DNA from: a phage
Direction: 5' to 3' (one strand)
Sequence record: PZ151149.1
Length of the DNA stretch: 64,000 nucleotides
Below, piece after piece: positions 18,179 to 25,191 of the stretch (position 1 is its first letter; every line of letters begins with the position of its first letter). The notes beneath the pieces were generated by a model, which was given only the letters and a program-made list of their open reading frames with translations, ran no database searches and was not told the DNA's origin. A program made the translations under genes and the position numbers.

Positions 18179-20422
18179 TTACAGCTTGCAAGATGAGCAC
18201 TCGCTAGCGTCTTCCGTACCATCTGCACCATCACGCACGTTAGCGTAATACAGGGTTTTCAGACCGTAATATTGAGCAAACAGCATATCATCTAACACAT
18301 CAGCAATATCGACTTTACCAGTCTTATAAGTGCTTGGATCATAGGATGTATTGGAACTAATCGCCTGATCCACAAACTTCTGCATGATCGCTGCCAGTGT
18401 CAGATAAGGCTTGTTACCTTTCTTGATCAGTGTCCAAAGCAGGTCAATAACATCAGCATTATTCTCTACGTTCGGAATAACCTGATTAAATTGCCCTTCT
18501 TTCGATCCTTTAACCGATACAATCCCGCGAGGCGGTTCAATACCGTTTGTGCTGTTAGATACCTGAGAAGACGACTCACACGGCATCAGCGCCGAAAGTG
18601 TACTGTTACGAATGCCATATTTTTTCAGGTCTTCGCGCAGTTCTTCCCAATCCATCTCATACACCGGATCAACCAGTTCATCTACTGTCTTTTTGTACCA
18701 GTCGATAGGCAGTTCACCGCGACCATAACGTGTTTCGTGCATCAGTTCGCAAGCACCCTTCTCTTTTGCTAGTTGCACACTAGCCTTAATCAGAGCATAT
18801 TGCAAGCGTTCAAACGTTTTATGCGTAAACTCGTTAGCGTCTTCATATGTGAAGAAATTATCCGCGAGATACGATGCAAAGTTAGTCACGCCAACACCCA
18901 GAGAGCGACGTTTTTTGGCTGTCAGAGCTTGTTCTACTGGATAATCCTGGTAATCTAACAAGTTGTCAAGCGCACGCACCATAACCATAGCAATGCGTTC
19001 TACTTCTTCCATGTTTTCGATATCGAAATTACCTAAAACATATGCTGCCAAAGTGCATAGACTGATCTCTGAATCATCACGACCCATCGGTTTTGTCGGC
19101 AGAGCAATTTCACAACACAGGTTAGATTGTTTAATCGGTGCTACATTACGAATAAACGCCCCGTGATTGTTCATGTTGTCTGTGAACGCTGGATAGATTC
19201 GACCAGTGTTAAAACGTTCAATTGCCACCGCTAAAAACAGGTCTTCGGCTTTAACACGAGTTTTACGAACACTCGGATCTTTTTCCAGTTTTTCGTAAAG
19301 CTGGCGGAAACCTTCCTCATCTCGGAAGTACAGATCCCACAACAAGCCACCTGCAACATCTGGACTAAACAGAGTAATGTAATCCCGTTTAAGGAATCGC
19401 TCTACCATCAGGTTATTAATCTGTACGCCGTAATCAAGATGACGAATGCGGTTATCTTCCACCCCCTTATTGTTCTTCAACACAATAAGACTTTCAAACT
19501 CTAAATGCCACATTGGGTAATAGAGAGTCGCCGCCCCGCCACGAATACCGCCTTGCGAGCATGACTTAACGGCAGTCTGAAAATGTTTCCAGAATGGGAT
19601 AACGCCAGTATGACGAACTTCACCATGCCCGATCTTAGATCCTTCCGCGCGAATCATGCCAGCGTTGATACCGATACCAGCACGCTTGCTAATATACTTG
19701 ATGATTGCATTTGCTGTTTCGTTGATGCCCTGCAATGAGTCATCACTTTCAATCACCACACACGAACTAAATTGGCGTGTTGGGGTACGCACACCTGCCA
19801 TAATCGGAGTAGGCAGAGAGATTTGCTTATTCGCAACAGCATTATAAAAATCAATCACATGTTCAAGTCGATTTTCTGTCTCTTCTTGATGCAAGCACAT
19901 ACCGATCAGCATATACGCAAATTGCGGTGTTTCAATGATTTTCTTAGTGCTGCGATCCTGAACAAGATATTTCTCTTTTAACTGCATCGCACCAGCATAG
20001 GTCATTTTAAAATCAAGTTTATGGTCGATGAATTTCTCCAGATATTCCACTTCTTCACGGGAATACTTTTGCAGAATTTCACGATCATATTTTCCGGTTG
20101 CAATATTACGCTCAATATGGCTGTAAAAATCAATCGGTTGGAATTGACCGTATACTGATTTACGAAGCGCGAACATTGCAAGGTTACTTGCTACATATTG
20201 ATAATCAGGTGTTTCTACAGTAATGTTATCTGCTGCGACCTTAATCAATACTTTCTGGATATCATTGGTAGACATACCTTCTGTCAGAAGTGGTTCAACC
20301 ATATCAAACAATTCATATGGATCAACGTTATGACCTTCGGCTGCCGCTTCCAGAATTTTCATTACTTTTTCTTTTTCAAACGGAACAGTCAGACCGGAAG
20401 ACTTAACAACATTTTTAATCAT
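18179..20422 (-). CDS. nrdA: ribonucleotide reductase large subunit
   Basis: 747 aa; active-site NLCCEI; C-terminal redox tail ECSSCKL; GAGGT SD. Confidence 0.9.
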   Translation of the reverse strand: MIKNVVKSSGLTVPFEKEKVMKILEAAAEGHNVDPYELFDMVEPLLTEGMSTNDIQKVLIKVAADNITVETPDYQYVASNLAMFALRKSVYGQFQPIDFYSHIERNIATGKYDREILQKYSREEVEYLEKFIDHKLDFKMTYAGAMQLKEKYLVQDRSTKKIIETPQFAYMLIGMCLHQEETENRLEHVIDFYNAVANKQISLPTPIMAGVRTPTRQFSSCVVIESDDSLQGINETANAIIKYISKRAGIGINAGMIRAEGSKIGHGEVRHTGVIPFWKHFQTAVKSCSQGGIRGGAATLYYPMWHLEFESLIVLKNNKGVEDNRIRHLDYGVQINNLMVERFLKRDYITLFSPDVAGGLLWDLYFRDEEGFRQLYEKLEKDPSVRKTRVKAEDLFLAVAIERFNTGRIYPAFTDNMNNHGAFIRNVAPIKQSNLCCEIALPTKPMGRDDSEISLCTLAAYVLGNFDIENMEEVERIAMVMVRALDNLLDYQDYPVEQALTAKKRRSLGVGVTNFASYLADNFFTYEDANEFTHKTFERLQYALIKASVQLAKEKGACELMHETRYGRGELPIDWYKKTVDELVDPVYEMDWEELREDLKKYGIRNSTLSALMPCESSSQVSNSTNGIEPPRGIVSVKGSKEGQFNQVIPNVENNADVIDLLWTLIKKGNKPYLTLAAIMQKFVDQAISSNTSYDPSTYKTGKVDIADVLDDMLFAQYYGLKTLYYANVRDGADGTEDASECSSCKL

Positions 20423-20469
20423 ATTACCTCACTTCATATTTTAGCAGGAACAAGTTTATCCTCCATAAC

Positions 20470-20485
20470 GGGGGCTTTCGCCCCC
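20470..20485. other. palindromic hairpin GGGGGCTTTCGCCCCC between td and nrdA
   Basis: Perfect palindrome; identical element occurs again at 31955..31970. Confidence 0.3.
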
Positions 20486-20490
20486 TTTGT

Positions 20491-21711
20491 TTATACTGCC
20501 ATTTGAGCGGTGATTGCTGGATGGCTTTGATAGTTGTGAATTTTAAAGTCTTTCGGAGTCTTTGTCAATACCTCATCTAAAGATTTAAATTCCGGCAACT
20601 CAATTGTTGGTTTATCAAACGGAACACGGCTTAACTGTTCCATAACCTGATCAAAATGGTTTTTGTAAATGTGAGTATCTCCACCAGAGAAAATCAGTTC
20701 TCCTACCTCAAGATCACACATTTTCGCTATGATGTGAGTTAACAGCGCATAGCTGGCAACATTAAAGGGCAAGCCCAAAAAGCTGTCTACGCTTCGCTGA
20801 AACCACATACAAGACAATTTACCTTCATTGACATAGAATTGCACGAAAGGATGACATACACCTAATACAGCATTATGTGTTCCTTGTACGTTCCATGAGT
20901 CAATAATGATCCGGCGATCCGTTGGATTGTTTTTAATTTGTTCAATCACGTTTTGTAACTGGTCTTCCCAAATCTTCGGGCGATAGACATATTCTTCATC
21001 GTCTTTAGTGCTCGATGTGTCTACGTCCATACTAGCAAAGATCGTGGTATCCGGTGCTAAAATGTCACCGCCCAGATATTCATTATCAAGCAGATAACCG
21101 AAATAACCATCATCTACCCATTCCTGGAATCCCCATAAGCAATATGCATCATTAACAAAATTAGATTGAGTCTTCCAGTGGTCTGCTACCAGAATATAAT
21201 CAAACTCTTCATAACGCATACCACGCCAGATAGCACATAAACGGTCTTCTGTGTCATTGGTTGGTGTAAAGTCTTCTACCCACGGGTGCTTAAATGTATG
21301 TGTATATTTGCTCTTAACGCGCTTAATTTTGATTTCACCGTGTGGATGAATCGGTTTGCGTCGCCATGCCATGCCATACATATTTCCAACATTATAACCA
21401 TTGAATCTCAAAGGATTCTTTTCTTTCATATCAAGACAGTTGCCGCGCCAAATGTCGAAGGCTTCTTCGTCAAACTTACCGCGTGTAATTTCCTGTAAGC
21501 GACGGCGGTCAAGTGATCCCTCCATAAACCATAGCAATTCGCCAATTACAGAGGCTGTAGCCATCTTTTTAGTGGTAAGTAAGGGGAAACCCTTGCTTAA
21601 GTCAATTCGCATTTCTGCACCGAATTTAGAGAGCGTACCTACCCCCGTTCGGTCTTCACGAGGCCAGCCATTATCAAGAACATCACGCAACAGTTTCAAA
21701 TATTCTTTCAT
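20491..21711 (-). CDS. td: thymidylate synthase with large internal insertion (406 aa)
   Basis: Conserved ThyA blocks DRTGVGT, FPLLTTK, RRIIIDSWNV, LGVCHPFVQFYV, GLPFNVASYALL, GDTHIY; about 125 extra residues between the WRRKP and IWEDQ blocks. Confidence 0.85.
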   Translation of the reverse strand: MKEYLKLLRDVLDNGWPREDRTGVGTLSKFGAEMRIDLSKGFPLLTTKKMATASVIGELLWFMEGSLDRRRLQEITRGKFDEEAFDIWRGNCLDMKEKNPLRFNGYNVGNMYGMAWRRKPIHPHGEIKIKRVKSKYTHTFKHPWVEDFTPTNDTEDRLCAIWRGMRYEEFDYILVADHWKTQSNFVNDAYCLWGFQEWVDDGYFGYLLDNEYLGGDILAPDTTIFASMDVDTSSTKDDEEYVYRPKIWEDQLQNVIEQIKNNPTDRRIIIDSWNVQGTHNAVLGVCHPFVQFYVNEGKLSCMWFQRSVDSFLGLPFNVASYALLTHIIAKMCDLEVGELIFSGGDTHIYKNHFDQVMEQLSRVPFDKPTIELPEFKSLDEVLTKTPKDFKIHNYQSHPAITAQMAV

Positions 21712-21952
21712 CCCACATCACCTTTTTCTTGTTGATTGCTTTCTTACGCAGTTTTGCTACTGTCTCGTCAATATCGATAAAGACAACACCCGGATCGAAT
21801 ACAGTAACAGGTCTTGAAATATCGCTATTTTCTTGCACCGGAAGCCATGATGCTCTCGCTTCATCATAGAGATATTGTAAACCATAATAATCTACGGCTA
21901 CTGCGTAGTTTTCACTGGTAGCCGACCATAGTTGAATAATGGTTATTTTCAT
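21683..21952 (-). CDS. hypothetical protein (89 aa)
   Basis: ATG at 21952 with GGAAGGGA SD; overlaps td start by 29 nt. Confidence 0.4.
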   Translation of the reverse strand: MKITIIQLWSATSENYAVAVDYYGLQYLYDEARASWLPVQENSDISRPVTVFDPGVVFIDIDETVAKLRKKAINKKKVMWDERIFETVA

Positions 21953-22044
21953 TATTGTTCCCTTCCGCAATGTAAACACCGACTACCAGCAAACATCAAA
22001 GATTCACCACAATGTTTGCACTCATAATCTGTCAGAATTTTCAT
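21952..22044 (-). CDS. 30-aa zinc-ribbon peptide
   Basis: Below track cutoff; MKILTDYECKHCGESLMFAGSRCLHCGREQ has two CxxC pairs; TAATG coupling to downstream gene. Confidence 0.3.
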   Translation of the reverse strand: MKILTDYECKHCGESLMFAGSRCLHCGREQ

Positions 22045-22045
22045 G

Positions 22046-22627
22046 TTACGCCTTCTTACGTTCTAAAATTTGCTCACTGATCAGATAATTATCAAGGAAG
22101 TAATTATGTTCTTCTTTTGTTGCAAAATCAAAAGATAATTCCTGAATCATTTCCTTAGAGATGCCAACATCATATTCAAACGGATCATTAATTCCTGATC
22201 GTTGAACATACGTTAACACAATACGGTCCGCAAAGTCAACTGCTTTTTCAATCAGGGAAGGTCCGCCAATAACGCTTACCAAACCTTGCAATTTCTCTAT
22301 GACCTCTAATAATTCCTTCAATCCACCATCATTAGTAATCGCGGTATACACATCTGGTTGGTCGCCGTTTTTTGCTTTCGGTGTTGGCTTACTGGTATCG
22401 GTGCTAACAACCACATTCACACGACCTTCCAGTGCTTTAGGGAGACTTTCAAAGGTATTACGTCCCATTACAACCGCCGCAAGATCAACATCTCCCATAG
22501 TGCGCATTTTAAAGTTTTCCATGTCCTTTTTGATTGGACGACCCCACGGTAAACCGCCTTTAAAACCAAAAGCCCAATTTTCATCTGACATTTTAGTATC
22601 ACCAATCGCAAATACACATTGAATCAT
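22046..22627 (-). CDS. frd: dihydrofolate reductase
   Basis: 193 aa (same as T4 Frd); DHFR motifs GGLPWGRP and VVMGRNTFESL; upstream of td. Confidence 0.85.
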   Translation of the reverse strand: MIQCVFAIGDTKMSDENWAFGFKGGLPWGRPIKKDMENFKMRTMGDVDLAAVVMGRNTFESLPKALEGRVNVVVSTDTSKPTPKAKNGDQPDVYTAITNDGGLKELLEVIEKLQGLVSVIGGPSLIEKAVDFADRIVLTYVQRSGINDPFEYDVGISKEMIQELSFDFATKEEHNYFLDNYLISEQILERKKA

Positions 22628-22642
22628 AATATAAATCTCCCA

Positions 22643-22972
22643 TCAAATCAGTTTGAAATAGTTTTCGTTTACATTTTCTTCTGTGATTGCTGTCTTAAAT
22701 TCTTGACCGTTATCCGGTGTGATGAAATAACGGTCAGAATAATCACGAAAACGTTTTAAGTGAGATACCCCAACATTAACACCATGTTCCAAAAAACGAA
22801 AGGTAATCATTTTTGGTTCATATCGATAGTCGCTGGTTAACACAGTACCATCCCCGCGACGGGCTTCATAAACCGTAATACATTCACGATTAGCGGCTTT
22901 AAGGCATTCTTCAATAGTGCCGCACGAGATAATACTTACTTTTTCATCTACGATTTGTTCTACAGTCCACAT
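22643..22972 (-). CDS. hypothetical protein (109 aa)
   Basis: ATG at 22972 with GAGGA SD; possible promoter (GTTGCA, 17 nt, TATAAT) at 23005..23034. Confidence 0.5.
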   Translation of the reverse strand: MWTVEQIVDEKVSIISCGTIEECLKAANRECITVYEARRGDGTVLTSDYRYEPKMITFRFLEHGVNVGVSHLKRFRDYSDRYFITPDNGQEFKTAITEENVNENYFKLI

Positions 22973-23004
22973 AATATAATCCTCTCTTTATTTCGATATG
23001 TGCA

Positions 23005-23442
23005 TTATACTTTGATTCTTACAAACTTGCAACCTAATTCTTTTTCAATTTGTTTCTGGCGCTCTATGTCCTGAGTAATTTTGTATTTGTGTTCCGGTTC
23101 GTCGATTTCATAAGCAACGTTATTAACCGGATCATAACCATCAATTCTATACCCCAATATAGGGTATTGTCGTTTTAATTTTATATTCAAAAGCTGTTCT
23201 ATTGTGTCTAGTGCAATCTTTTCGGCAGCTGATAATCCAAAACGTATTCCAAAATATTGTTTCCTCACCGCTTCCGCAAGTTCTTCTGTTAAAATTATTT
23301 GCTTCTGTTTTCTACCATACACATCAAAATATTCACTATAATCATAACACAGACCTGTGTTTCTTGCAACCTTTTTTATGTCTCTAGTTACATTGGCATG
23401 ACGTTTATTAAATTCTTTCGCAATATCCAGTGAGCTAATCAT
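23005..23442 (-). CDS. Rha-like N-terminal domain fused to PD-(D/E)xK-type endonuclease-like C-terminus (145 aa)
   Basis: N-terminus SSLDIAKEFNKRHANVTRDIKK resembles phage Rha regulatory domain; C-terminus GYRIDGYDPVNNVAYEIDEPEH ... GCKFVRIK resembles DUF559-type nuclease fold. Confidence 0.5.
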   Translation of the reverse strand: MISSLDIAKEFNKRHANVTRDIKKVARNTGLCYDYSEYFDVYGRKQKQIILTEELAEAVRKQYFGIRFGLSAAEKIALDTIEQLLNIKLKRQYPILGYRIDGYDPVNNVAYEIDEPEHKYKITQDIERQKQIEKELGCKFVRIKV

Positions 23443-23469
23443 TTTATCCTCCGTTGCTTAGATGAGTGT

Positions 23470-23497
23470 ATTATACATTACCACATCATCATGTCAA
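23470..23497 (-). promoter_or_regulatory. probable early promoter
   Basis: TTGACA (23497..23492), 16 nt spacer, TATAAT; followed by GGAGGA SD and ATG at 23442. Confidence 0.45.
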
Positions 23498-23559
23498 CAC
23501 CTTTTTCATAAAATTTTAGGCAATAAAAAAGCCTCCCCGAAGGAAGGCTTTAAAATTCA

Positions 23560-24534
23560 TTACATCCCTAACAGAGCGTCAAGATCATCCAGATCAGAAG
23601 CGGAGGAAGTACCGCCACCCAGGTCCAGAGATGCCATCAGGTCATCAGCGGAAGAACTCGACGCTGCGATAGCTGCGGTAGAAACTGACGCGGCGATAGC
23701 TGAGGTAGTGCCAGCATCGAATGCATTCATCTGTGCGTCAAAATCGTCAAGCTGGCTGTTAATCGCTGCCGCAGCACTGGAAGCCGCAGCACCAGCTACC
23801 ATAGAAACGCCCATAGTTTTCTTAAATTTGGTTTCCAGTTCATCGAACGGTTTAAACTGGCTAGGCGCTACAATCTCACCCAGATCAACCATGTTTTCCA
23901 TCAGATATTTCTGATATGCTTCGTCTTCAATCTTCGGAAGCTGTGATTGCTGCATGAAACGAGAATCATCATAGTTCTGGTGTTTATCAACCTTCTTAGC
24001 TTTCAGGAGGAAGTTAGCACCGGAGAACACACAAGTTACATCTACCGGAACTTCGCCCATGTCGGTATTCACGTTCACCATTGCAACGATCTTATCATAA
24101 ATTTTCTGACCGAAGCGGAATTTGAATACCTTACCTTCGTTTTCTGGTGCTTGAGGATCTTTCAGTACCAGAATATTTGCGTAGTAAGAGGCTTTACGCT
24201 TAATCAGTTGCCATTCTGTTTTATCGGTATTGTACAGATCTTTTTCGTTAATATATTTGCACACAGGGCAAGAATCAAAATCACCGTGGGTGCTGGAGCA
24301 GTTTTCCCAATACCATTTGCCATTAACTTTGAAGGAATGGTTTACCAGTTTCACAATCGGCAGACCGTCTTCTGTCTTAGACGGCAGGAAGCGAATCAGG
24401 GCTTCACCGTTACCCGCTGCATCAGTCTTAATCTTCCACTCTTTCGGATCTTCTTTGGAGAAACCGTTGCCACCTTTCAGTGCGGCCAGTTGAGCTTGCA
24501 GTTTGGAGCTATCTTGACGACGGAACATGTTCAT
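23560..24534 (-). CDS. 32: single-stranded DNA-binding protein gp32
   Basis: 324 aa; zinc-binding H/C cluster CSSTHGDFDSCPVC; acidic C-terminal tail DLDDLDALLGM; synteny 59-32-frd. Confidence 0.85.
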   Translation of the reverse strand: MNMFRRQDSSKLQAQLAALKGGNGFSKEDPKEWKIKTDAAGNGEALIRFLPSKTEDGLPIVKLVNHSFKVNGKWYWENCSSTHGDFDSCPVCKYINEKDLYNTDKTEWQLIKRKASYYANILVLKDPQAPENEGKVFKFRFGQKIYDKIVAMVNVNTDMGEVPVDVTCVFSGANFLLKAKKVDKHQNYDDSRFMQQSQLPKIEDEAYQKYLMENMVDLGEIVAPSQFKPFDELETKFKKTMGVSMVAGAAASSAAAAINSQLDDFDAQMNAFDAGTTSAIAASVSTAAIAASSSSADDLMASLDLGGGTSSASDLDDLDALLGM

Positions 24535-24594: not shown

Positions 24595-25191
24595 TTAATT
24601 GCTTGTCAATATTTTATCAATTATATCTAACAGTTTTGGTTTTCTATTTTCAAATTCTAACATCTCTTCGGGAGAAATGTCAACTACTTCTGTTTTGTTG
24701 AAAAAGTTTGGGTCTATAGCATCAGCAACAAAGTTTCTCGCAAGTGCTGCCGCTTTCTCATGAACATATATTCCCAAATATATCAACTTCTTTCTTTCGA
24801 CCTGAATATTGGCAACATATTTACCATCTCGTTTATAAAGACTAACACCGATATATTCAGATGATCGACCTTTCTGTTTACCCATATTTCTTGAGTTCTG
24901 TTGCTCGTTCGCATCTCTCAAGTTTTCAATCCGATTATCTGTTATAATTCGGTTAATATGGTCAACGTATTTTGGCATGTATCCATGATGCATAAAGAAA
25001 ATTATTCTATGCTCTTTATGATGTTTACCATCGATACATACCAATCGGTATCCATGACTAGGATTAACTCCACCCGCTCTAGATCCGACTTTGTGCTTTC
25101 GGTTTGTCGATATCTTGCGAATCAGCTTACCGTTATCATATTTAAAGAGTTCATGACAACGAGCATACAATTCAGGATCATATGTTTTCAC
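24595..25191 (-). CDS. HNH-AP2 homing endonuclease (198 aa)
   Basis: Paralog of 17053..17592: HNH core DHINRIITDNRIENLR plus AP2 domain YIGVSLYKRDGKYVANIQ; GTG start; inserted between 59 and 32. Confidence 0.7.
   Translation of the reverse strand: MKTYDPELYARCHELFKYDNGKLIRKISTNRKHKVGSRAGGVNPSHGYRLVCIDGKHHKEHRIIFFMHHGYMPKYVDHINRIITDNRIENLRDANEQQNSRNMGKQKGRSSEYIGVSLYKRDGKYVANIQVERKKLIYLGIYVHEKAAALARNFVADAIDPNFFNKTEVVDISPEEMLEFENRKPKLLDIIDKILTSN

Follow-up and report, generated by a model that had tools for sequence, protein, structure and literature searches.

The 64,000-nucleotide stretch of phage DNA analyzed here (sequence record PZ151149.1), referred to below as the window, contains a td gene (positions 20491 to 21711) that codes for a thymidylate synthase (TS) of 406 amino acids, followed by a stop codon. 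Residues 121 to 246 of this protein, Td (IHPHGE...YVYRPK; positions 20974 to 21351), form a block with no counterpart in TSs of ordinary length. Comparison with related inserts in other phage TSs and with free-standing phage proteins suggests that the block is probably what remains, in degenerate form, of a homing-endonuclease-like module that colonized one surface loop of phage TS in frame and without splicing. The source of the window is a Krischvirus (RB49-like coliphage), with a td region 96 to 98% identical to those of the RB49, Phi1, and JSE genomes. A td product of 406 to 411 amino acids with the inserted block, 89 to 99% identical to that of the window, was present in 59 phage records, which were all of the Krischvirus records found (59/59); no td lacking the block was seen among them. 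The td gene and all of its parts located below lie on the minus strand.

An additional domain in the Td protein

In the alignment with the TSs of Escherichia coli, T4, and Lactobacillus casei, the surplus length of Td was a single contiguous block between W116-R117 (followed by RKP) and D250-Q251. A preliminary description of the window, made from the sequence alone, had placed the extra length of the 406-residue open reading frame (ORF) in one block between WRRKP and IWEDQL, and the alignment to ThyA structures confirmed this; the surplus was not scattered over several variable loops. The coordinates proposed there, 20976 to 21351, correspond to the correct residues, but the exact codon range begins 2 nucleotides earlier, at 20974. 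The spacing from WR to DQ was 132 residues in the window Td, compared to 5 to 33 residues in 25 ordinary TSs. The loop concerned separates the GxxYGxxWR motif from the DQ(L/I) helix and corresponds to E. coli residues 102 to 109, where E. coli ThyA has PTPDGRHI and T4 Td has DFGGV.

The rest of the protein has the TS fold. The N-terminal core (residues 1 to 120, ending in GNMYGMAWRRKP; 21352 to 21711) aligned with residues 1 to ∼101 of E. coli ThyA, and the C-terminal core (residues 247 to 406; 20494 to 20973) aligned with residues 110 to 264. All of the E. coli ThyA chains in the PDB aligned to Td in two pieces, query residues 1 to ∼82 or 117 and 250 to 406, with query residues 1 to ∼117 corresponding to E. 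coli residues 1 to ∼100 and query residues 250 to 406 to E. coli residues 110 to 264. PF00303 matched Td at 283.4 bits (curated threshold, 24.3) in a match that was likewise split into two pieces, and TIGR03284 matched at 283 bits (threshold, 108). The conserved ThyA blocks were intact, as had been proposed: R21, R266, C286-H287, Q291, R306-S307, D309, N317, H347, and Y349 were invariant in the alignment with the E. coli, T4, and L. casei enzymes. The codon of the catalytic Cys286 (20854 to 20856) lies within the C-terminal core.

The inserted block was predicted with confidence to fold as a separate domain, an outcome that agrees with its earlier description as an inserted domain. The AlphaFold2 model had a mean predicted local distance difference test score (pLDDT) of 93.7 and a predicted template modeling score (pTM) of 0.92 for the whole protein, and the pLDDT of the insert alone was 92.8. 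In this model, the first strand of a two-stranded beta stalk (residues 118 to 130; 21322 to 21360) leads to a globular part (residues 153 to 227; 21031 to 21255) with predicted helices at 153 to 171, 177 to 189, and 195 to 200 and strands at 206 to 209 and 224 to 227. An acidic coil follows (residues 228 to 240, SMDVDTSSTKDDE; 20992 to 21030) at the place where longer relatives have an NKxLNGGG region and a NUMOD-like subdomain, and the second stalk strand (residues 241 to 250; 20962 to 20991) returns into the TS helix that starts at DQLQ (residues 251 to 261). W162, W179, F185, and D188, all in the globular part, were invariant in an alignment of 20 TS inserts.

The ratio of nonsynonymous to synonymous substitution rates (dN/dS) of the insert was 0.12 to 0.28 among Krischvirus genes. 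When compared with the most divergent allele, the globular part had a dN/dS of 0.09 to 0.17 at a synonymous divergence (dS) of 0.7 to 1.2; the TS core had a dN/dS of 0.09 to 0.17 in the only comparisons with enough core divergence. The model and these sequence comparisons together indicate that the insert of the window is still folded and under purifying selection.

Length variation is also present within the insert and at its site. An indel of 4 amino acids (SEYN) lies inside the insert near window positions 21195 to 21210 (td residues ∼171 to 173), where RB49-type genes read EFDSEYNLFLVA (410 amino acids) and the window type reads EFDYILVA (406 amino acids). Many insert-less phage TSs (P0056 to P0058, as well as that of phage 121Q at L006 3099 to 4028) already have an extension of 28 to 34 amino acids at the insert loop, which reads EWEDYKFSS...GVVMKRTTDQL in 121Q. 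Such an extension could be a preexisting hairpin that the module entered at its tip, or it could be all that is left of an insert after complete decay.

Relatives of the inserted module and signs of mobility

When the window insert alone was compared with Pfam, PHROGs, and NCBIfam, no significant family was detected. However, a tblastn search with the insert alone identified same-site inserts in the 517-amino-acid TS of the jumbo phage UE-S1 (1e-11) and in a 477-amino-acid TS-family protein of Vibrio phage D69 (4e-6) that is annotated as an "HNH endonuclease." The TS part of the D69 protein (L001 2632 to 4065) is divergent, with ETRSGK for DRTGxGT and SFYNIWSY for LPFNIASY, and this protein may no longer be a thymidylate synthase. 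The longer inserts of the UE-S1 and D69 type matched PHROG families 2081, 953, and 374, all of which are named HNH endonuclease, at 4e-32 to 1e-14. Inserts at the same site in other phage TSs reach ∼280 amino acids.

A profile built from three inserts recovered further insert-bearing TSs and ∼30 free-standing phage proteins of ∼200 amino acids. The core common to the TS inserts and the free-standing proteins is LYxIWxxMxxRCY...VCxxWxxFxNF...QLDKD...YSPDTCxF...N, and what follows it in the free-standing proteins is either an I-HmuI NUMOD-like domain or a weak AP2 domain. A profile made from the free-standing proteins only scored 53 to 91 bits against the long TS inserts and 18.5 bits against the window insert (residues 172 to 239). 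Full-form inserts (∼240 to 280 amino acids) consist of a beta-rich N-terminal subdomain, a core module of ∼90 amino acids (LYxIWxxMxxRCY...VCxxWxNFxNFxxD...(L/I)DKDyyGsNxYSPxTCxF...N), and a small NUMOD-like C-terminal subdomain, an architecture that is the same as that of the free-standing phage genes in which the module is joined to an AP2 or NUMOD DNA-binding domain. Among structure matches in BFVD, long TSs ranked first, followed by proteins named homing endonuclease, AP2, or NUMOD. By these comparisons, the window insert was shown to be homologous to the (L/I)DKD module family (PHROGs 953, 2081, and 374; no Pfam family).

The module is widespread in phage TSs. A word-indexed search with the full protein yielded ∼17 clusters of TSs of 401 to 613 amino acids with inserts at the same site. 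A profile of 20 insert-bearing TSs was used to search 1.84 billion cluster representatives exhaustively with HMMER, and the best 150 matches were examined. These representatives (of clusters at 50% identity) were mostly 390 to 739 amino acids long, and the module was present in 131 of the 150. In most of the best module-bearing representatives, the match to the TS profile broke within positions ∼115 to 125; in the remainder, the break was further off or the N-terminal match ended near positions 65 to 75, in a variable region. No clearly different insertion site was found among them. A scan of species-representative bacterial and archaeal genomes with two peptide patterns, which has limited sensitivity, returned nine loci, all of them free-standing ORFs and none inside a TS.

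Thus, the proposal that Td carries a novel inserted domain holds in that the block is a single in-frame module with no Pfam family, but the module is shared with at least 131 TS cluster representatives and with free-standing phage proteins. To that extent it is a domain common in phage Td proteins, yet no literature description was found. The full-text literature searched, from which subscription-only papers were absent and which included text of a review on the mobile elements of phages related to T4 and of a comparative study of jumbo phages, yielded no description of the RB49 td insert or of endonuclease-type TS inserts.

Evidence for movement of the long-form inserts came from Asteriusvirus, in which a single td locus with identical neighbors has three alleles, coding for 309 (121Q and most relatives), 517 (UE-S1), and 546 (ph0011) amino acids. 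The flanking DNA, the first ∼270 nucleotides of td, and its last ∼250 nucleotides were 90 to 95% identical, whereas in the center of the gene (1,029 versus 405 nucleotides) no DNA similarity was detectable, and the boundaries were sharp. The corresponding proteins have common ends and differ in the insert together with ∼26 residues on its N-terminal side and 75 to 100 on its C-terminal side. Copying of an element into a gene together with flanking sequence leaves such a pattern.

The insert-bearing TSs of UE-S1 (L002, Asteriusvirus) and KP13-7 (L025, a Klebsiella phage of the genus Alcyoneusvirus) are 87% identical and thus common to two jumbo-phage genera. Between these two, the dS of the insert was 0.55 compared to 1.1 to 1.6 for the core, and the dN/dS of the module was 0.07. 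The dS of the insert is below that of the surrounding core, and the insert is therefore younger than the gene that hosts it. These comparisons show that insert-bearing alleles replace insert-less td alleles along with flanking td sequence and support mobility of the long-form inserts.

A metagenomic phage-like contig (L003 5450 to 7152; P0012) encodes a distant TS-family paralogue, with ECAF for PCH, that carries the module at the same loop. The possibility that L003 contains a td-family gene split by the module was considered and set aside. A scaffold gap of 10 N separates a 128-amino-acid N-terminal piece from a 383-amino-acid piece, and split and continuous genes are indistinguishable here because of this gap and because the downstream frame is open right up to it.

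Decay of the Krischvirus copy and competing explanations

The insert of the window has lost much of what the long forms possess. In the alignment, it lacks the beta-rich N-terminal subdomain (∼65 amino acids), ∼9 residues of the helical RCYNPxxxxY region, and the NKxLNGGG segment with the NUMOD-like tail, so that none of the flanking DNA-binding subdomains (AP2, NUMOD-like, or beta-rich N-terminal) is present. The helix after the second strand is also gone, the segment being a coil in the predicted structure. The counterpart of (L/I)DKD is a decayed LDNE at residues 208 to 211 (21079 to 21090), a position that is variable even among near relatives of the window td (LDSD, LDCD, LSCK, and LSLV). 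There is no histidine at the motif position, as a beta-beta-alpha-metal HNH/His-Me finger would have, and the window insert does not have the combination of (L/I)DKD and an asparagine after YSPxTCxF that is conserved elsewhere.

Loss of the motif followed the length of the protein. In a survey of 147 module-bearing TSs, with counts for 144 after three fragments of <350 amino acids were set aside, (L/I)DKD was kept in 80 of the 90 long TSs (>490 amino acids), in 17 of 34 intermediate ones, and in only 1 of the 20 short ones (≤430 amino acids). The net charge of the module was −11 in the window, compared to about 0 to +4 in the long forms and a median of +2 in the free-standing proteins. Such a charge argues against DNA binding by the window module. 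The absent parts, the net charge, and the loss of the motif lead us to infer that the window copy has lost its function.

The course of events that we propose is as follows. A module would have entered the TS loop in frame and would have been translated from then on as a permanent internal domain, there being no intron or intein to remove it. Homing would have proceeded by cleavage of an empty td allele and its repair from an occupied one. In the Krischvirus lineage, the flanking subdomains and the DKD motif would then have been lost, and the domain would have turned strongly acidic. What remained would be a compact domain of helices and beta strands, carried by a two-stranded stalk that projects from a TS fold intact in all other respects. 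Because the subdomains, the helix, and the DKD motif are lost and the domain is strongly acidic, the Krischvirus insert has most likely ceased to bind DNA or to move. Selection might hold the domain folded and in frame either because precise deletion is rare and misfolding would harm the enzyme or because the domain has found a new use.

Several observations weigh against this reading. The homing-endonuclease activity of the module family is putative. Pfam found no match, and no HNH domain, in 23 members of the family, which is without the canonical HNH histidine; the module profile gave only chance matches to bromodomains (E value, ∼0.5) when compared with all PDB sequences; and hhalign detected no similarity (probability, 0.3%) between the module profile and the canonical HNH_3-AP2 protein encoded elsewhere in the window. 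The basis of the HNH label is thus the PHROG names, the domain architecture, and a weak match to PacI. In a tree of TS cores from which the insert had been removed, most insert bearers fell into one loose clade, so that much of the distribution could be explained by one ancient acquisition and later exchange of genes. Ordinary homologous recombination between TS alleles could likewise be the source of the cassette replacement. Presence/absence polymorphism with coconverted flanks was found for the Asteriusvirus long forms, but all 59 Krischvirus records have the insert. Furthermore, purifying selection as strong as that on the core is also compatible with a domain that has been exapted and is functional.

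The canonical gene used in the hhalign comparison (24595 to 25191, minus strand; 198 amino acids) is a free-standing HNH_3 plus AP2 homing-endonuclease gene that adjoins gene 32 (23560 to 24534), with matches to PF13392 at 5e-12 and to AP2 at 7e-5. It matches the PHROGs of the module only through its HNH-domain end and AP2 domain, and in the free-standing proteins the module therefore occupies the usual place of the catalytic domain.

Exaptation of the Krischvirus insert is a possible explanation but hardly a probable one. It would mean that the insert is retained because it now has a function of its own, such as docking of Td to the nucleotide-synthesis or replication machinery, regulation of the enzyme, or service as an acidic decoy. 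The fixed presence of the insert in the genus, its dN/dS of 0.09 to 0.28 near that of the TS core, and its confidently predicted, rigidly placed fold (pTM, 0.92) would fit such a role, as would the shift to a net charge of −11, which looks like a consistent change and not like random decay. However, the short forms of different lineages have lost different pieces and have no new conserved motif in common, as decay predicts. Any folded insert should be under purifying selection when the enzyme that contains it is needed, and the insert is not known to have a partner or an activity.

It is unlikely that the insert arose by ordinary domain gain, in which one fusion event placed a DNA-binding module in a permissive TS loop and the module then spread only by general td recombination, with the free-standing relatives merely sharing the domain. 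The clustering of most insert-bearing cores would be in keeping with such an origin, as would the variable loops of 5 to 33 amino acids that ordinary TSs already have at the site and the failure of the Pfam, PDB, and hhalign comparisons to reveal a nuclease motif. The exception in the core tree speaks against it: P0054 carries the module in a core that is 84% identical to an insert-less TS. The same is true of the module at the same site in the distant TS-family paralogue P0012 on L003, of the three alleles with abrupt boundaries at one Asteriusvirus locus, and of the lower dS of the insert than of its host gene. The series of decreasing length and decaying motif, which resembles the life cycle of homing-endonuclease genes, also speaks against it.

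That the window insert is itself still an active homing endonuclease seems very improbable. It is homologous to the module family, but its DKD motif reads LDNE and varies in close relatives, both DNA-binding subdomains are absent, the net charge is −11, a coil follows the second strand in the model, and no empty td alleles into which it could home were seen in the genus.

Least credible of all is an absence of the block from the mature enzyme, through an intein, an intron, translational bypass, or a sequencing artifact: T4 td hosts a group I intron and inteins are frequent in phage nucleotide-metabolism genes, but the td frame of the window is continuous, Rfam gave no match at an E value of ≤1 in 20300 to 21900, a Pfam search of the protein gave no Hint or intein match on the insert, and selection acts at the protein level (dN/dS well below 1) on a block conserved in 59 independent genomes. 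An intein was rejected both on the Pfam result and on the junctions, P120|I121 and K246|I247, which have isoleucine at the N-terminal junction, no terminal His-Asn, and an isoleucine following in place of Cys, Ser, or Thr; a group I intron was rejected on the continuous ORF and the Rfam result. The preliminary description was borne out in both respects, in finding no intein signature and in separating the block from the intron seen in T4 td. An assembly or frameshift artifact was rejected because the block is present in 59 phage records, at 89 to 98% amino acid identity, and it evolves as protein-coding sequence.

Descent of the window block from a homing-endonuclease-like module thus remains the explanation that we prefer. 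A wider proposal, which we advance tentatively and hold to be possible rather than probable, is that the long-form inserts, found in UE-S1, KP13-7, and ph0011 as well as in more than 90 metagenomic TS clusters, are an undescribed kind of homing element. Such an endonuclease-type module would spread from one phage td gene to another while it lives as a permanent, nonspliced domain of a working enzyme and borrows the expression signals of its host gene. The block in the window would then be a fossil of such an element, possibly reused as an acidic surface domain.

The td neighborhood and comparison with known systems

The gene order around td, frd-td-nrdA, is the same as in T4-type phages. The upstream neighbor is frd (dihydrofolate reductase; 22046 to 22627, minus strand), and the downstream neighbor, from the annotation in relatives, is nrdA (ribonucleotide reductase large subunit; 18179 to 20422, minus strand). 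A 98-amino-acid ORF (21683 to 21979, minus strand) overlaps the start of td by 29 nucleotides; all relatives have it annotated as a hypothetical protein, and no Pfam family matches it. Krischvirus phages differ from one another in the interval from frd to gene 32: most relatives align to 19000 to 24000 of the window in two pieces with 91% coverage, and they carry other "endonuclease" genes in this interval. In the window, it includes a 145-amino-acid ORF (23005 to 23442, minus strand) with an N terminus of the Rha type (PF09669) and a DUF559/Vsr-like endonuclease C terminus (PF04480).

Within Krischvirus, td is mosaic at window positions 20650 to 20950 (td codons ∼255 to 355). JSE, GEC-3S, and KFS-EC were ≥92% identical to the window nearly throughout the remaining td but only 52 to 81% identical in this tract; in KFS-EC, one 20-codon window outside the tract dropped to 85 to 90% identity. 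The breakpoint lies ∼7 codons to the 3′ side of the insert, and the alternative tract is similar to insert-bearing td of the P0005-7 type. Constraint at the nucleotide level, considered because synonymous divergence was low in the stalk-coding parts, was rejected when sliding windows revealed this mosaic structure of td in the genus.

To our knowledge, homing endonucleases are known in three settings (free-standing, in introns, and in inteins), in each of which the product of the host gene is free of endonuclease. Here, an endonuclease-type module apparently persists in frame and unspliced inside an enzyme that keeps every catalytic residue, and public sequence data contain a series of copies, from complete to vestigial, that spans at least 131 clusters at 50% identity. 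Should the complete forms prove active, they would represent a fourth mode of life for homing endonucleases. They would also be a natural example of a large domain that entered TS and left its fold intact, and they could supply new modules for the site-specific binding or cleavage of DNA. The module also explains the phage "thymidylate synthases" of 400 to 600 amino acids that are labeled hypothetical protein or HNH endonuclease. The finding for the window is more modest: Td of the RB49 type contains a relic domain, conserved and folded, whose sequence entered GenBank with the RB49 genome and has apparently never been discussed.

The known systems most like the insert include the free-standing phage genes in which a catalytic module is followed by AP2 or NUMOD, such as the ORF at 24595 to 25191 and I-HmuI-type genes. 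The insert module is homologous to the N-terminal module of the ∼200-amino-acid proteins, the long TS inserts retain the NUMOD-like tail, and the PHROGs concerned bear the name HNH endonuclease. However, the TS module is an internal domain of an enzyme and not a separate gene, canonical HNH_3 has DH where the module family, which lacks a Pfam HNH match, has (L/I)DKD, and the window copy is without the DNA-binding parts and the motif. Homing-endonuclease inteins are similar in their in-frame location at a conserved site of a nucleotide-metabolism enzyme, their sporadic distribution, and their decay to mini forms. The TS insert differs from them in that it has no Hint domain or splicing junctions, must stay in the mature protein, and occupies a permissive surface loop rather than an active-site motif.

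The group I intron of T4 td with I-TevI has the same host gene and an endonuclease-type protein, and flanking td sequence is coconverted with it, as in the Asteriusvirus pattern described here. In contrast, the TS insert lies at another position in td, has no RNA structure, is translated through, and belongs to a family other than GIY-YIG. In phage Aeh1, nrdA is split by a homing-endonuclease gene of the mobE type, another case in which an endonuclease-type gene sits inside an essential nucleotide-metabolism gene without a splicing element and the host function survives; the frame of the TS insert is continuous, however, and the result is one chimeric polypeptide. The 50-amino-acid insert in the small domain of L. 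casei ThyA also demonstrates that extra residues are tolerated on the surface of TS with the fold kept. It lies upstream of GxxYGxQWR, between IWDEWA and GDLGxVYGxQWR, whereas the insert of the window lies downstream of that motif, folds as a domain of its own, and has relatives outside TS.

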